Made by a program: the position numbers and the translations under genes | Notes under the pieces: generated by a model | The model's input: only the letters and a program-made list of their open reading frames with translations | What the model was told of the DNA's origin: nothing | Databases searched by the model: none | Origin: an uncultured Francisellaceae bacterium | Lineage (GTDB): Bacteria; Pseudomonadota; Gammaproteobacteria; Francisellales; CACEW01 | Assembly (NCBI GenBank): GCA_905612315.1 | Contig: CAJQSL010000089.1 | Coordinates: 1-29,724 of the forward strand | DNA: 29,724 bases | Direction of reading: 5' to 3' | Shown here: one piece after another, positions 8,986 to 25,900 of the stretch | Numbering within the stretch: position 1 is the first letter of the stretch | Layout of the letters: every line of letters begins with the position of its first letter

Positions 8986-9059
8986 TTTTATGAGTATTGA
9001 ATCAAATTTGTTGAAACAGATCATTTCTGACCAGCAGGAGGAGCTGGCATGGGTGTGAT

Positions 9060-9167
9060 GGGAGTATCTCCTTTTATGGCAGCAATGGGTAATGGTGGTG
9101 GGGCTTCGGCTGCTAAGAAGGAGGGTGTTCCTGAACAGCAAAATGGGGCTTCTTAGGAGCCCCTTTC
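9060..9167 (+). pseudogene. 35-codon ORF (MGVMGVSPFMAAMGNGGGASAAKKEGVPEQQNGAS) that is a near-copy of the 3' end of the large gene (7024..7123). Likely a gene fragment, but it carries a consensus SD (AGGAGG 7 nt upstream).
   Basis: DNA-level similarity to 7024-7110 is very high (for example ccttttatggcagc[a/t]atgggtaatggtggtggggct), with a 9-nt indel. At protein level, PAGGAGMGVMGVSPFMAAMGNGGGAS aligns with QAGGAGMGMAPFMAAMGNGGGAAS. An in-frame stop lies immediately upstream of the similarity, so no larger ORF exists. Confidence 0.45.
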
Positions 9168-9179
9168 TAGCTTTGTACC
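9156..9179. terminator. Weak hairpin between the convergent small ORF and the AAA+ ATPase gene
   Basis: GGGGCT-tcttagg-AGCCCC is a 6-bp GC stem followed by tttct on the + strand. Confidence 0.35.
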
Positions 9180-9191
9180 TTTGCTAAGTTA

Positions 9192-10352
9192 TTAAATGTC
9201 ATCAGGTAAGAAATTCATTAAGCTAAAGGTGGAAAGAAACTCAGCAAGGTCCCGAATGTGAATATTATCTTCTGTATCAAATTCTTTTGGGCAATTTAAA
9301 ACTAACTGGTAGCAGTCTTTTAATTTGAGGGCCTTTTTGAAAAAATTAAGATGCTTGCTTGGGGTTGTGTCTGATGTTTTAACCTCACAACAAAAAGCAG
9401 GTTTGTCTTCTATTGTTATAAGAAAGTCAACTTCTTGGTTGTTTCTGGTTCTTAGATAGTGCAATCTAGCACTAAACCCCTCAGTATCTTCTAGGTAGTG
9501 AATTTCTTTTAACAAAGCGCAAGCTACTAGATTCTCTACTCGTGCGCCTTCATCTTTTACTCTGGGAGTATCAAAGAAGTAGAATTTAGGTTCTTTTAAA
9601 ATGGAGCGAGCTATATTGTGATGGTACGGCGTTATTCTAAATAACACATAAAAGTTTTCTAATAGCATGGTCCAGTTTTTTACGGTTTTGGCATCTACTT
9701 GTAAATCTTGTGCTAGGTTCGAGTATGATAGTGGCGAGGCAATTCTACTCATGAGTAAGTCAATTAATATTTCAATGCTTTTGATGGACCTTATGCTGCT
9801 TAGGTCTAAAAAGTCTTGTCTTAGGATGATGTCCAGATGAGTTTTGCGCCATCTTCTGTAGAATGTCTTAGAGTCTTTTAAATACGGCTCAGGAAAACCG
9901 CTTAGCTGTAAAATTTTTGTTGCTGTTTTATGGGGGGATTCTTTGGTAAGTGCGGTTATTTCTTTTATATCTACAGGGTGTAAGCGAAATTGAAAATATC
10001 TGCCAGCTAATGAGTCACCAACTTTAGTAAAGCTGTCCATATTAGCACTGCCAGTGACTATTATTCGAGGACGTACTCCTTCAGTATCATAAATTCCTTT
10101 TATCCAGCGTTTCCATTCGGGCATTTTATGTAACTCATCAAAGATTACGCACTCAACATCTCTGGGCCAGTGTTTTTTTAATATCATCTCGCGCTCAGAG
10201 CTTAAGTCATAATTTAGGTATGCATAGTTTTTAAATAGAGCTTTTGAGAGAGTGGTTTTTCCTGTTTGGCGCGGGCCGCTAATTAAGATTATTTTTTCGT
10301 CGCAGTCTTTTTTTATCAAATCTCTAATATATCTATCCATATTTGTAACCAA
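9192..10352 (-). CDS. AAA+ family ATPase with C-terminal DUF4143 domain (ATP-binding protein, archaeal-ATPase type)
   Basis: 386 aa with a Walker A motif (GPRQTGKTT) near the N-terminus and a Walker B-like motif (VIFDELH). The overall layout is typical of the widespread DUF4143 ATPase family. It is the only intact gene between the tRNA direct repeats. Confidence 0.8.
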   Translation of the reverse strand: MVTNMDRYIRDLIKKDCDEKIILISGPRQTGKTTLSKALFKNYAYLNYDLSSEREMILKKHWPRDVECVIFDELHKMPEWKRWIKGIYDTEGVRPRIIVTGSANMDSFTKVGDSLAGRYFQFRLHPVDIKEITALTKESPHKTATKILQLSGFPEPYLKDSKTFYRRWRKTHLDIILRQDFLDLSSIRSIKSIEILIDLLMSRIASPLSYSNLAQDLQVDAKTVKNWTMLLENFYVLFRITPYHHNIARSILKEPKFYFFDTPRVKDEGARVENLVACALLKEIHYLEDTEGFSARLHYLRTRNNQEVDFLITIEDKPAFCCEVKTSDTTPSKHLNFFKKALKLKDCYQLVLNCPKEFDTEDNIHIRDLAEFLSTFSLMNFLPDDI

Positions 10353-10378
10353 TTGTTTTTAAATATTATCTTAATGAC

Positions 10379-10443
10379 ATTTTAGGACACAATTCCTGTT
10401 TTGTCAAGACAATTCGGGAATTGTGTCCTGTTTTGTCTTGACT
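10379..10443 (-). promoter_or_regulatory. Near-consensus sigma70 promoter for the AAA+ ATPase, overlapped by a perfect 12-bp inverted repeat (candidate operator). A divergent TTGACT -35-like element lies on the + strand.
   Basis: The minus strand reads TTGACA (10407..10402), a 17-bp spacer, then TAAAAT (10384..10379), with the ATG at 10352. GGACACAATTCC (10385-10396) and GGAATTGTGTCC (10417-10428) are exact reverse complements flanking the -35. cctgttttgtcaagac and cctgttttgtcttgac are a direct repeat pair. A + strand TTGACT lies at 10438-10443. Confidence 0.55.
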
Positions 10444-10503
10444 TGTTAAGCCTTTTTTGAGTATATTAATTTAACGAAAGGATGGAAAAATAAGTAAAAA
10501 GAA

Positions 10504-10580
10504 TGGTGGCTATGGGTGGACTTGAACCACCGACCCCAGCATTATGAATGCTGTGCTCTAACCGGCTGAGCTACATAGCC
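10504..10580 (-). tRNA. tRNA-Met (anticodon CAT), elongator type. tRNA-Ile2 (lysidine-CAT) cannot be fully excluded.
   Basis: The reverse complement folds as a cloverleaf: acceptor GGCTATG/CATAGCC, D-arm GCTC-AGCCGGTTA-GAGC, anticodon stem CAGCA/TGCTG with loop TTCATAA, T-arm GGTGG-TTCAAGT-CCACC, and an encoded CCA. The G1:C72 pair argues against initiator tRNA. The sequence is close to E. coli metT. Confidence 0.85.
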
Positions 10581-10595
10581 AAAGTAATCCGCGTT

Positions 10596-10624
10596 ATTAT
10601 GTAATAATTGAGTGAAATTGTCAA
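10596..10624 (-). promoter_or_regulatory. Putative tRNA-Met promoter
   Basis: The minus strand reads TTGACA (10624..10619), a 17-bp spacer, then CATAAT (10601..10596), about 15 nt upstream of the tRNA 5' end. Confidence 0.45.
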
Positions 10625-10704
10625 TAATTCAGAGCACAATAACTTGCAATCAGATATTATATAGACTTAAGATTATAACAGTATAATAATAGTTTGGGGT
10701 TGGT

Positions 10705-11751
10705 GTGATCGAATCTGATAAAATTGATGTTATTGAAAATAATCAAGGTGATAGGATTATAAGCGCAGATCAGCAAGGCCCTGATAATATTATTGATCGG
10801 GCATTGCGCCCTAAAACGCTAGAAGGTTTCGAGGGTCAGCCCAAAGTTTCAGCACAAATGCGTATTTTTATTGATGCTGCTATAGCAAGAGCAGAAAGTT
10901 TGGATCATGTTTTAATTTATGGTCCGCCGGGCTTAGGTAAAACTACTTTATCTCACATAATTGCGTATGAGATGGGAGTTAGTGTAAAGCAAACTTCAGG
11001 TCCTGTGATAGAAAAGGCAGGAGATTTAGCTGCTATTTTAACTAATCTGCAGCCTAATGATGTATTGTTTATAGATGAGATCCATCGATTATCCCCGCAA
11101 ATTGAAGAAGTTTTATATCCAGCTTTAGAAGATTATAAATTAGATATTATGATTGGTGAAGGCCCGGCAGCGAGATCCATAAAGCTTGATTTGCCCCCCT
11201 TTACTTTAGTTGGGGCGACTACTAGAGCAGGTTTATTAACCGCACCTTTAAGAGACAGATTTGGTATCACCCAAAGACTGCAGTTCTATGATGTAAAATC
11301 TTTAGTTAATATAGTTAAAAGATCAGCTCAATTGTTAGATGTGAATCTTTCTGATTGCGGCGCTAATGAGATTGCAAAAAGATCGCGCGGCACTCCAAGA
11401 ATTGCAAATAGATTATTGCGCAGAGTTAGAGATTTTGCCCAGTGTAAGAATTGTAAAATTATTAAAGCATTTGATGCAGATGCCGCGCTTAATTTATTAG
11501 AAGTAGATGCAAGAGGCTTGGATGAGAGTGATCGGATATTATTAAGAACCATAGTTAAGCAATTTGCCGGCGGCCCGGTTGGCTTAGATACTTTGTCTGC
11601 AGCCATTGGCGAAGAAAAAGGTACCATTGAGGAGATAATTGAGCCATATTTAATTCAGCAAGGTTTAATACAGCGATCTCCTCGAGGAAGGCTCGCTAGT
11701 GATTTAACTTATGAGTATTTAGGTTTACCAAATAAAAATAGGAGAAATTAA
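10705..11751 (+). CDS. ruvB: Holliday junction branch-migration helicase RuvB (GTG start)
   Basis: Collinear with E. coli RuvB from MIESDK.../MIEADR... through Walker [16 protein letters not shown], and the C-terminal EPYLIQQG(L/F)(I/L)QR(S/T)PRGR. Confidence 0.95.
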
Positions 11752-11753
11752 AT

Positions 11754-12437
11754 ATGCAAGGTCATTTATCTATTTGGGCATTAATTGCACACGCCGACTG
11801 GGTGGTTAAGTTCGTTTTATTAGTATTATTAGGGTTATCTATTGCCTCATGGTGCATTATTTTTGAGAGAACTAAAGCTATAAAAGCTGCCAATAGAGCT
11901 TTGAATGATTTTCAATTAGATTTTTGGCAGGCATCGGATCTGCAATCTTTGTATCATAAGTTTAATCGAATGCAAGAAGAGCTATCCGGAGCTGCTAATA
12001 TATTTTTGGCAGGTTTTAAAGAGCTTGTTAATAGGCAGGCGCAAAATAATAACAATAAAAGTCCAGATAAATTATTAGAAGGTGCCAACGGCATGATGAA
12101 AGTTGCCTTCTTAAAAGAAAGTGATAGGTTAGAAACTGGTTTAAGCACTCTTGCAACCATTGGTTCAGTAAGTCCGTATATTGGCTTATTTGGAACAGTT
12201 TGGGGGATAATGAGCGCGTTTCAATCTTTAGGAATGGTTGAACAGGCAACTTTGCAGATGGTAGCTCCTGGCATTTCAGAGGCATTAGTTGCAACTGCGA
12301 TGGGTTTGTTTGCAGCAATTCCGGCTGTTATAGCTTATAACAGTTTCTCAAGCGCATCTGATAATTTAGTTAATCAGTTTGAGAATTTTAAAGATGAATA
12401 CAGTGGCTTATTGCACAGACAACTTTATGCGGCATAA
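11754..12437 (+). CDS. tolQ: Tol-Pal system protein TolQ (MotA/TolQ/ExbB proton-channel family)
   Basis: 227 aa with 3 TM segments. The conserved C-terminal TM region is GLFGTVWGIMSAF...APGISEALVATAMGLFAAIPAVIAYN. It is followed directly by the tolR homolog. Confidence 0.85.
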   Translation: MQGHLSIWALIAHADWVVKFVLLVLLGLSIASWCIIFERTKAIKAANRALNDFQLDFWQASDLQSLYHKFNRMQEELSGAANIFLAGFKELVNRQAQNNNNKSPDKLLEGANGMMKVAFLKESDRLETGLSTLATIGSVSPYIGLFGTVWGIMSAFQSLGMVEQATLQMVAPGISEALVATAMGLFAAIPAVIAYNSFSSASDNLVNQFENFKDEYSGLLHRQLYAA

Positions 12438-12448
12438 AGGAGCATAAT

Positions 12449-12871
12449 ATGTCAAGACGTAGAAATAAAAGAAAGTTAGAAGCACAAATCAATGTGGTTC
12501 CATATATTGATGTGATGTTGGTTTTGCTAATAATTTTTATGGTAACAACTCCCTTGTTAAAGCAAGGCGTAACAGTTGATTTGCCCAGCGCTCATGCCAA
12601 AAGGTTGTCTACTAAAGATATGCAGCCAGTAATAGTGACCGTAAATAGAAGTGGTAAATATTTTGTTAATTTACAAAAGGGTAATGGTTATGTAAGCCCT
12701 GAGAGATTAGGCAAGGTTGTAAGTGGTTTTCTTAAGAAAAATTCCAAGCGCGATGTTTTGGTTCGAGGAGATAAGGAGGTTAGTTATGGTAAAGTTGTTG
12801 AAGCCATGGTCTTATTGCAAACAGGGGGGGTGAATAAAGTTGGGCTGATGACGGATTCTAAGTATAATTAG
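12449..12871 (+). CDS. tolR: Tol-Pal system protein TolR (ExbD/TolR family)
   Basis: 140 aa. A basic N-terminus and single TM (INVVPYIDVMLVLLIIFMV) are typical of ExbD/TolR. It is adjacent to tolQ. Confidence 0.85.
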   Translation: MSRRRNKRKLEAQINVVPYIDVMLVLLIIFMVTTPLLKQGVTVDLPSAHAKRLSTKDMQPVIVTVNRSGKYFVNLQKGNGYVSPERLGKVVSGFLKKNSKRDVLVRGDKEVSYGKVVEAMVLLQTGGVNKVGLMTDSKYN

Positions 12872-22807: not shown

Positions 22808-22921
22808 ATAGCTCACCTTACGCAAAAACATACCCAGTGCAGTCATTGCGAGACTACGTCGAAGCAATCTCGGGTGGAGTGCTAAGCGCGTAGCCCGTAT
22901 CGATTTTTAAAAATCGATAAA
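22808..22921. repeat. Dispersed intergenic repeat element, copy A (~114 bp)
   Basis: Starts atagctcac. Core is gtcattgcgagactacgtcgaagcaatctcg. Ends with the palindrome atcgatttttaaaaatcgataaa. It is homologous to 25801-25900 and 29686-29724. Confidence 0.75.
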
Positions 22922-25800: not shown

Positions 25801-25900
25801 ATAGAGACAAAACAAATAAAAACACCGACCGCTGTCGTTGCGAGCATACTTGCGAAGCAATCTCGTGCATAGCACGTATCGATTTGTTAAAATCGATAAA
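25801..25900. repeat. Dispersed intergenic repeat element, copy B (~100 bp)
   Basis: ctgtcgttgcgagcatacttgcgaagcaatctcg...cgtatcgatttgttaaaatcgataaa aligns along its length with copy A. Confidence 0.75.

Follow-up and report, generated by a model that had tools for sequence, protein, structure and literature searches.

In Escherichia coli, prophage e14 resides in icd, where it supplies the gene with a new 3’ end and leaves a 163-bp fragment, icdC, at the far end of the prophage (PMC6379469, PMC13626634). Excision of e14 rebuilds a chimeric icd (PMC6379469, PMC13626634), and chimeric genes that arise by deletion between direct repeats or paralogous fragments are described for both icd-icdC and cpsG (PMC13626634).

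The locus reported here belongs to a metagenome-assembled (MAG) contig that was analysed over its whole length of 29,724 nt (36% GC), and that we refer to as the window. As for e14 (and phage 21) in icd, the probable insert lies in the 3’ end of a protein-coding gene, in this case a giant SPFH/Band-7 gene, and supplies that gene’s new end. The native end appears to have been orphaned on the far side, as 163 bp in icd and as 124 nt here, and the flanking homologous repeats would permit an excision that rebuilds a chimeric gene. However, e14 is 15 kb long and encodes its own integrase and excisionase, whereas the insert here measures 2 kb and carries one cargo gene, for an outer-membrane porin, and no recombinase. 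The substitute end of icd is a close homologue throughout; here the homology is that of a short direct repeat alone, which we call R, and the last 12 codons are unrelated. As in the described chimeric genes, recombination between the two copies of R would remove the porin cassette and restore the old C-terminus, and cassette-bearing and cassette-less strains coexist, but the switch is deduced here from a presence/absence polymorphism in metagenomes.

Genomic islands in tRNA genes include integrase-less remnants flanked by att repeats (cis-mobilisable elements). The locus shares with them a direct repeat of the 3’ part of a tRNA, a small accessory gene (for an ATPase) between the repeat copies, and palindromic and inverted repeats beside the tRNA repeat. 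It departs from them in that the displaced tRNA half lies inside the R-bounded cassette, such that the two repeat pairs interleave and do not nest; in that there is no integrase, the ATPase gene being the sole gene between the tRNA copies; and in that a cassette-less strain, as read from its gene table, is without the tRNA half yet has the ATPase gene. Displaced gene ends of the icd/icdC type are known; what is slightly unusual in this case, in an uncultured and probably Legionellales-like bacterium, is an integrase-less 2-kb cassette with interleaved repeats.

Layout of the locus and its repeats

From left to right, the region consists of the large gene, R, the new tail of that gene, a hairpin, the porin gene, a tRNA half, a non-coding stretch (X), a palindrome array, a spacer, the second copy of R, the old tail and the ATPase gene. 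Downstream of the ATPase gene come an inverted-repeat region and then the intact tRNA-Met gene, ruvB, tolQ and tolR. The individual features, with coordinates in the window, are as follows.

3098-7123, + strand: giant SPFH/Band-7 domain gene (Pfam Band_7, E 6e-10), 1341 aa from ATG
7021-7084, + strand: left copy of R (A1), 64 nt, coding for ..AGGAGMGMAPFMAAMGNGGGA; marks the probable left boundary of the insert; in repeat families D7 and D3, and also detected by self-BLAST
7085-7123, + strand: probable substitute tail from the insert, 12 codons (ASSASKDGEHKK) plus TAA
7154-7193, no strand assigned: hairpin plus T-run (inverted repeat I5), 17-nt arms, 94% complementary; also found by self-BLAST
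7203-8572, - strand: LbtU-like outer-membrane porin gene (NCBIfam LbtU_sider_porin, E 1e-19, below the curated cut-off), probable cargo of the insert
8665-8718, - strand: copy of the tRNA-Met 3’ part (B1), tRNA positions ~29-76 plus 6 nt, inside the probable insert
8719-8898, no strand assigned: non-coding stretch X, 180 nt, with a 9-bp-stem hairpin near 8863-8895
8899-8997, no strand assigned: three tandem 33-nt units (family D1), each with the palindrome CTTCCATT-N3-AATGGAAG
8998-9032, + strand: spacer of 35 nt that holds the TGA at 9028-9030, probable right edge of the insert; 100% identical in assembly L008
9033-9105, + strand: right copy of R (A2), 73 nt in the window, with a 9-nt ATGGGAGTA segment common to the outgroup L001
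9106-9156, + strand: probable native end of the large gene, SAAKKEGVPEQQNGAS and then TAG; the 35-codon orphan ORF is made up of 9049-9105 and this tail
9145-9163, no strand assigned: GGGGCT..AGCCCC hairpin that overlaps the fragment’s stop codon, terminator-like on the - strand
9192-10340, - strand: AAA_14/DUF4143 ATPase gene (Pfam), 382 aa
10504-10580, - strand: intact tRNA-Met gene (ARAGORN; Rfam 72.7 bits), whose 3’ part plus 6 nt (10498-10551) is the second tRNA repeat copy (B2)

The open reading frame of the large gene opens at a GTG at 3080, and its product is identical to the database protein P0001. The family to which it belongs is rare: an exhaustive HMMER search found 19 clusters at E<1e-30 among 1.84 billion representatives, a word-indexed search returned 3 clusters, and a scan of a genome collection with the large-protein alignment yielded a 31%-identical MAG (L004, the same as L002) and no others. 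A sequence search of the PDB produced a marginal SPFH match and nothing else. The AlphaFold2 model of residues 265-1010, built from a 3-sequence alignment, was unusable (pLDDT 37); a putatively vault-like protein, with beta repeats, an SPFH shoulder and a long helix, is one idea of its architecture. Its C-terminus is of low complexity and rich in Met, Gly and Gln. All members of the family have Met/Gly/Gln/Pro-rich tails whose sequence is not conserved, and because the Met/Gly/Gln-rich character is constant, the tail probably matters.

The initial annotation of this DNA had described a copy of the large gene’s 3’ end within the downstream islet, reused there as a short open reading frame. A repeat does link the 3’ region of the gene to the islet: in a self-BLAST of the window, 7021-7084 aligned with 9033-9105 in 60 of 73 columns (E 7e-14), as a 21-nt block at 95%, the 9-nt indel that had been reported, and a 48-nt block at 90%. 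The 35/36 match on which the description drew, CCTTTTATGGCAGC[T/A]ATGGGTAATGGTGGTGGGGCT, was present as claimed (7049-7084 versus 9070-9105). Self-comparison found only two significant direct repeats in the window, namely R and the tRNA-Met half. A 13/15-nt likeness between the tRNA-Met 3’ end (10503-10517) and R (7055-7069) was considered and set aside as not significant (E 4.8). Beyond 7084 and 9105, what remains of the gene (39 nt) and of the fragment (51 nt) was 46% identical, a value equalled in 190 of 500 shuffles. Because the similarity ends at 7084/9105, the copy is a 64-nt stretch just short of the gene end and not the end itself; the 64/73-nt repeat is real, but the two termini resemble each other no more than shuffled sequence does.

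The orphan ORF occupies 9049-9156 (108 nt, 35 codons), which is 11 nt to the left of the 9060-9167 first assigned to it. Homology to the large gene begins abruptly at 9033 after unrelated DNA, with no gene sequence further upstream, and the in-frame stop said to precede the copy was found immediately upstream of the homology (TGA, 9028-9030). An AGGAGG at 9036-9041 stands 7 nt upstream of the ATG, and the frame had been credited with a consensus Shine-Dalgarno element on this account. The same AGGAGG-N7-ATG string is also found within the large gene (7024-7039, with AGGAGG at 7024-7029 and the ATG at 7037), where it encodes Gly-Gly-Ala-Gly-Met (..A-G-G-A-G-M-G..). The motif and its spacing are as described, but as read from these letters the apparent Shine-Dalgarno and the ATG are inherited coding sequence.

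Within the insert, the porin gene is the only ORF of at least 60 aa. Its product is 98% identical to an intact 457-aa porin (P0004/P0140). By frame analysis, a T11 run (8550-8560) in the window shifts the signal peptide and start codon into another frame, which may be a phase-off allele or an assembly error. The hairpin at 7154-7193, between the convergent large gene and porin gene, is likely to be a bidirectional terminator. The displaced tRNA-Met copy matches its counterpart in the intact gene (8665-8718 versus 10498-10551) at 52 of 54 positions (E 9e-19), and is also found in three other assemblies (L005, L008 and L012). The two repeat pairs interleave in the order R, tRNA half, R, tRNA half. 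The GC content of the insert is 35.7% versus 36.3% for the window, and composition does not mark it as foreign.

In the non-coding stretch X, Rfam found no family at gathering score, and at a permissive threshold 8560-9260 gave sub-threshold noise; the fold of 8850-9035 had z = -5.1 relative to shuffles. The palindrome motif has 3 matches, against 0.24 expected, and occurs nowhere else in the window. Evenly spaced beside R, the three palindromes are candidate protein-binding sites. ARAGORN calls part of the array a 95-nt ‘tRNA-Val’, which is a miscall when set against Rfam, and the third unit together with a T5 run (8964-8984) is terminator-like on the + strand. BLAST of 7021-10704 against plasmids and phages returned tRNA-Met matches only, and viral-contig scans for the palindrome array and the porin found nothing. 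The best plasmid match, to a Legionella adelaidensis ‘plasmid’ region, is uninformative.

To the right of the orphan, the stop of the ATPase gene lies 35 nt beyond the fragment’s TAG at 9156, and the hairpin at 9145-9163 is probably the original terminator, shared with this convergent gene. The ATPase matches the PADLOC candidate defence family PDC-S01 (E 3e-52). Its homologues at 84% and 76% identity lie in unrelated contexts, and L006/L007 have the ATPase module alone (9204-10446), in unrelated surroundings and with no gene fragment. Since the module occurs alone elsewhere, the adjacency of fragment and ATPase gene appears to be specific to the chromosome of this lineage.

Orthologous loci in other assemblies

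Relatives for comparison are few. The initial annotation had pointed to orthologous loci as a source of evidence; one outgroup gene, one contig without the porin gene and one long contig with the filled structure could be compared.

The outgroup is a low-coverage ENA contig (L001) whose orthologue of the large gene is 86% identical over 4.1 kb. It is a single gene that ends with the islet-type tail. Its alignment to the window’s large gene stops at 7087, and its last 109 nt align to 9037-9156, through the stop codon. After R, the outgroup tail is 82% identical to the fragment tail, a level reached by 0 of 500 shuffles, and 44% identical to the present tail, which is the level of chance. Both the outgroup gene and the fragment hold the 9-nt segment ATGGGAGT. 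As the outgroup tail matches the fragment in sequence and with the expected divergence, this comparison argues that the fragment is the native gene end. The substitute tail (7085-7123), which is identical in L005 and L008, has no similarity beyond chance to either the fragment tail (46%) or the outgroup tail (44%).

The 90% cluster of the ATPase includes a JGI protein that differs from the window’s by one residue. An 8136-nt contig of JGI sample 3300072015, from a nearly identical strain, has the order ruvB’ / 358 nt / ATPase / 35 nt / Band_7 / YajQ / CitMHS’, with the Band_7 gene (1363 aa) on the strand opposite to the ATPase gene and, by the gene table alone, no porin gene between the two. 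In the window, too, 35 nt lie between 9156 and 9192. The JGI contig has 4220 nt from the stop of YajQ to that of the ATPase gene, and the window, minus the insert, has 4225-4234 nt, an agreement within 5-14 nt. This is the geometry expected of an unoccupied site, read from a gene table in which loop-skipping by the assembler at an exact 64-bp repeat is possible. Metagenome scans with protein patterns and with an exact 28-nt junction pattern found nothing, and exact look-ups of two ATPase start variants and of YajQ returned no record.

The filled structure is present in four other assemblies (L005, L008, L011 and L012). One of them, L008, is an independent ENA assembly from another sample (coverage 12.7) and is collinear with the window from 4139 to 12494. 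Its two copies of R form a perfect 64-bp repeat (64/64), 2016 nt apart and with no indel; in L005, L011 and L012, too, the right copy is 64 nt long and identical to the left copy. Short contigs from further samples (L005, L009-L012) end in or cross the same junctions, again with an indel-free right copy.

Two statements about paralogues are affected by these comparisons. The repeat had been said to exceed in DNA identity the aligned proteins elsewhere; no paralogue pair exists for such a comparison. The fragment might also have been the end of a second, intact large paralogue, as the initial annotation had allowed, but in relatives it is the end of the same gene.

Origin of the orphan fragment

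We consider it likely that the orphan is a recombination scar: the giant SPFH gene’s own 3’ end, which an insertion of ~2.0 kb separated from the rest of the gene. The ancestral layout would have been the large gene (ending ..GNGGGASAAKKEGVPEQQNGAS*), 35 nt, the convergent ATPase gene, tRNA-Met and ruvB. Into this layout, ~2.0 kb of DNA would have entered by a single crossover in the 64-nt R, towards its left end, as a Campbell-type insertion of a circular intermediate. The circle would have brought its own, slightly different R, 12 new codons and a stop, the terminator hairpin and the LbtU-like porin gene, together with the tRNA-Met 3’ half, the non-coding stretch and the three palindromes. 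The product would be gene-R-new tail-porin-...-R-old tail, in which an uninterrupted gene has acquired a substitute C-terminus and its former end persists as the 108-nt orphan ORF. We infer the circle, the donor and the enzyme alike; the last could be RecA, or an integrase acting in trans. A filled site would be recognised by its gene-to-GCAAGTTCTGC join, an empty site by the join of the large gene to the TCGGCTGCTAAGAA.. tail, and the excised circle by the junction ..TTCTGACC-R-GCAAGTTC... With a 64-bp direct repeat at its flanks, the insert should be removable through recombination of one copy with the other, and gene conversion can take place between the two. A removable insert fits the coexistence of filled and empty strains.

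Recombination between the 3’ end of the large gene and adjacent accessory DNA, as the initial annotation had proposed, is marked by the repeat. The proposal that the event was recent also holds, given the perfect 64-bp repeats and the ~99% identical block described below, but its polarity is reversed: the fragment is probably native and the present tail the newcomer.

Several observations count against an insertion. No recombinase gene is present in the insert or in the 29.7-kb window, where none of the 20 proteins scanned had an integrase, excisionase or transposase domain. The repeats interleave, and a mirror-image history would yield an identical final structure. The tRNA-Met half in the insert lacks an explanation under a cassette history; it may be a relic of an earlier stay of the cassette beside or within an element integrated in tRNA-Met. 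Finally, the outgroup-like 9-nt segment of the right copy is kept in the window only, in a short ATGGGN-repeat context where recurrent indels are possible. Two further origins were rejected. Target-site duplication by a transposon or IS is contradicted by the lack of a transposase, by insert ends without a terminal inverted repeat pair and by a flanking repeat of 64 bp; moreover, as the R copies differ in the window, they point to two homologous partners and not to a duplicated target. Tandem duplication of the whole gene-to-tRNA interval fails because the two halves hold unrelated genes.

The structure can also be read from its tRNA repeat. In tRNA genes, the identity block of a tyrosine-integrase site typically begins in the anticodon stem and extends to the 3’ end, and the repeat here has this classic extent (anticodon stem to 3’ end plus 6 nt), with the palindromes on one side and inverted repeats (10384-10442) on the other that could be attP arms. 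Read in this way, 8719-10497 would be a degraded, integrase-less 1.8-kb island, site-specifically integrated in tRNA-Met, that carries X, the palindromes, the ATPase gene and a captured gene end made up of R and the old-type tail. This end would have been picked up earlier, from a genome in which the large gene abutted the ATPase gene; the present tail and the porin gene would be native, and the cassette-less contig would be a deletion between the R copies, which a 64-bp direct repeat is able to mediate. That the ATPase is in a candidate defence family that travels between genomes also suits an island. We nevertheless regard this history as unlikely. It needs a gene-porin-tRNA-Met-ruvB layout, which is unseen in the four retrieved porin contigs (three of them at most 2 kb long), it still presupposes an earlier adjacency of large gene and ATPase gene, and no integrase is present. 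It would give this lineage a native tail with no relation to the one on the 86%-identical L001 orthologue, whereas the ‘captured’ tail diverges as an orthologue should. Under this history, moreover, a native tail and the porin gene’s first 500 nt would have to be free of differences between strains whose core genes differ by 4-7%. The occurrence of the ATPase module by itself in L006/L007 also counts against it, as the adjacency of fragment and ATPase gene then looks chromosomal. Under the insertion and the tRNA-islet readings alike, the fragment is a recombination by-product. A more elaborate form of the insertion, in which the 2-kb cassette is a non-autonomous element that targets the 64-bp R and is moved by an integrase encoded elsewhere that recognises the palindromes, would make the locus a reversible porin/tail switch, with the orphan as a stored tail or a translated mimic. 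We think this improbable; if it were true, a surface porin would be gained or lost together with a swap of the giant protein’s tail.

That the 35-codon ORF is a real micro-protein gene, whose product acts as a decoy or competitor for binders of the large protein’s C-terminus, had been raised as a possibility, and appears to us very improbable. The frame is open in the window and in other strains, AGGAGG lies 7 nt upstream of its ATG, and Met/Gly/Gln-rich tails are constant across the large-protein family. However, the event is too young for the openness of a 108-nt ORF to carry meaning, and the start signals come from the parent coding sequence, the same string being present inside the large gene. 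The + strand of 8719-9048 (330 nt) holds no promoter-like site, the terminator-like hairpin and T5 at 8964-8984 lie directly upstream, and the neighbouring genes are on the opposite strand, which leaves no operon placement. The frame has 35 codons in the window versus 32 in L008 and L011, with one non-synonymous (Lys/Asn) difference in the tail. Gene calling in the complete L008 context placed nothing at this position, no gene is recorded there for the window’s own contig, an exact look-up of the 35-aa peptide returned no record, and the cassette-less contig has no free-standing copy of the fragment. We conclude that a micro-protein with a perfect Shine-Dalgarno is a false lead, and that the frame is probably an insertion scar. 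A decayed paralogue remnant, or a duplication produced by metagenome mis-assembly, seems hardly credible to us. The window is a whole MAG contig, repeats cause mis-joins and few relatives are available, but the same order recurs in the independent L008 assembly at its coverage of 12.7, and short contigs from three further samples agree at the junctions. A remnant of a second gene is opposed by the abrupt start of homology at 9033 after unrelated DNA, by protein searches that found no second copy, and by the outgroup and JGI contigs, in which the large gene is single-copy and the fragment forms its end.

Age of the probable insert and exchange between strains

For the large gene, the window and L008 agree at 94.1%; ruvB and tolQ are 96.4% and 93.3% identical, respectively. 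Their divergence falls from ~6% to ~0% at 7048: no difference was found in 7049-7616, and 9106-10704 was ~99.3% identical. The accessory block reaches ~99% identity in strains that are 93-96% identical in their core genes. This low-divergence block starts inside R and ends ~140 nt into ruvB, limits which indicate that the whole gene-to-ruvB accessory block was recently exchanged between strains, with one end-point in R. Judged by these identities, the insertion event appears to be young.

Strains of this lineage differ in the carriage of an LbtU-like porin and in the C-terminal tail of a giant SPFH protein. A speculative consequence is that, were proteins of the lineage secreted by way of a C-terminal signal, exchange of the tail could affect function. 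For annotation, the locus is a warning about short ORFs at insertion junctions, a false 95-nt ‘tRNA-Val’ on palindromes, and chimeric gene ends.

Within the low-divergence block, differences between the window and L008 are clustered in three patches. One lies in the porin gene (7617-7714) and probably corresponds to a surface loop, and another lies just upstream of the tRNA half. A third comprises 30 nt of the right copy of R (9054-9084), and is best read as a gene-conversion event in L008-like strains in which the left copy overwrote the right, with the window keeping the outgroup-like state. Gene conversion between the two copies of R probably occurs.

Reading frame and variation of the porin gene

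The start of the LbtU-like outer-membrane porin gene (window 8550-8572, minus strand) contains a T11 homopolymer run, and because of it the ATG and the signal peptide (MLISKKK..) fall in a different frame from the barrel ORF. At the same homopolymer site, the strains L005, L008 and L012 read TTTGTTTTTTTT, and they encode an intact 457-aa porin. The frame break in the window means that the allele is phase-off or a pseudogene, unless it is an assembly error.

Comparison of the window with L008 or L005 showed ~99% identity across the porin gene, apart from 17 clustered differences, including a 3-nt indel, at 7617-7714. The clustering suggests a hypervariable loop at the protein surface or a small patch of recombination. 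A disruption was found in L012 (GCA_029936035.1, contig JAPOGK010238775.1), where the porin gene is broken by unrelated DNA joined at window ~8136:

L012 1-121 (reverse-complement view), interrupting DNA in the porin gene, with two copies of TTTGCAGGCGACAGCCACGCTA

Both an insertion and an assembly chimera are possible explanations. The high number of this contig, above 238,000, points to a large assembly, of a host or a metagenome.

The ATPase as a candidate mobile gene

In PADLOC, the AAA_14/DUF4143 ATPase matched PDC-S01, a candidate defence family (E 3e-52). The homologous regions compared were:

window 9192-10446, ATPase gene and upstream stretch
L006 3827-5081, homologous region
L013 727-1883, homologous region

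The ATPase homologues at 84% and 76% reside in unrelated neighbourhoods (between a methyltransferase gene and lgt; adjoining RNase T), and those at 60% identity occur in MAGs of Rickettsiales and Alphaproteobacteria. The ATPase looks like a single gene travelling between genomes, accompanied by ~100 nt of upstream inverted repeats.

Palindromes and small resemblances at the repeat junctions

Within the palindrome array, at window 8939-9033, ARAGORN called a tRNA-Val of 95 nt with anticodon AAC, and it made the identical call in L008 and L012. Rfam found no tRNA at this position; the ARAGORN call is a false positive. Repeated palindromes (AATCCCTTCCCCTTTGGGGAAGG) are also present in the outgroup contig L001, at 6325-6480, immediately 3' of the large-gene stop, and their style is like that of the CCTTCC...GGAAGG palindromes of window 8899-8997.

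The 3' end of tRNA-Met (ATGGTGGCTATGGGT, window 10503-10517) has 13/15 nt in common with the direct repeat R that flanks the porin insert (ATGGCAGCTATGGGT, 7055-7069). This resemblance is not significant (E 4.8), and is curious because both are repeat junctions of one structure. A second tiny ORF at 8990-9058 (MSIESNLLKQIISDQQEELAWV, 22 codons) starts 5 nt past a GGAGGG and runs into R in a different frame; its counterpart in L008 is longer, at 62 codons. The 22-codon ORF is probably meaningless.

The large SPFH protein family and distal intergenic repeats

The large protein (window 3098-7123) and its homologues P0141-P0156 belong to a very rare family, whose members are 1050-1340 aa long and run from a disordered N-terminus through ~500 residues of predicted beta-hairpin repeats, an SPFH domain and a long coiled coil to a Met/Gly/Gln/Pro-rich tail. 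This layout recalls the major vault protein, a likeness that the AlphaFold model (pLDDT 37) is too poor to test.

Elsewhere in the window, 22824-22921 and 25818-25900 form a weak intergenic direct repeat (E 1e-5), matching at 70% over ~99 nt. Positions 22898-22919 make up a perfect 22-nt palindrome. Together, these could represent a dispersed intergenic repeat family.
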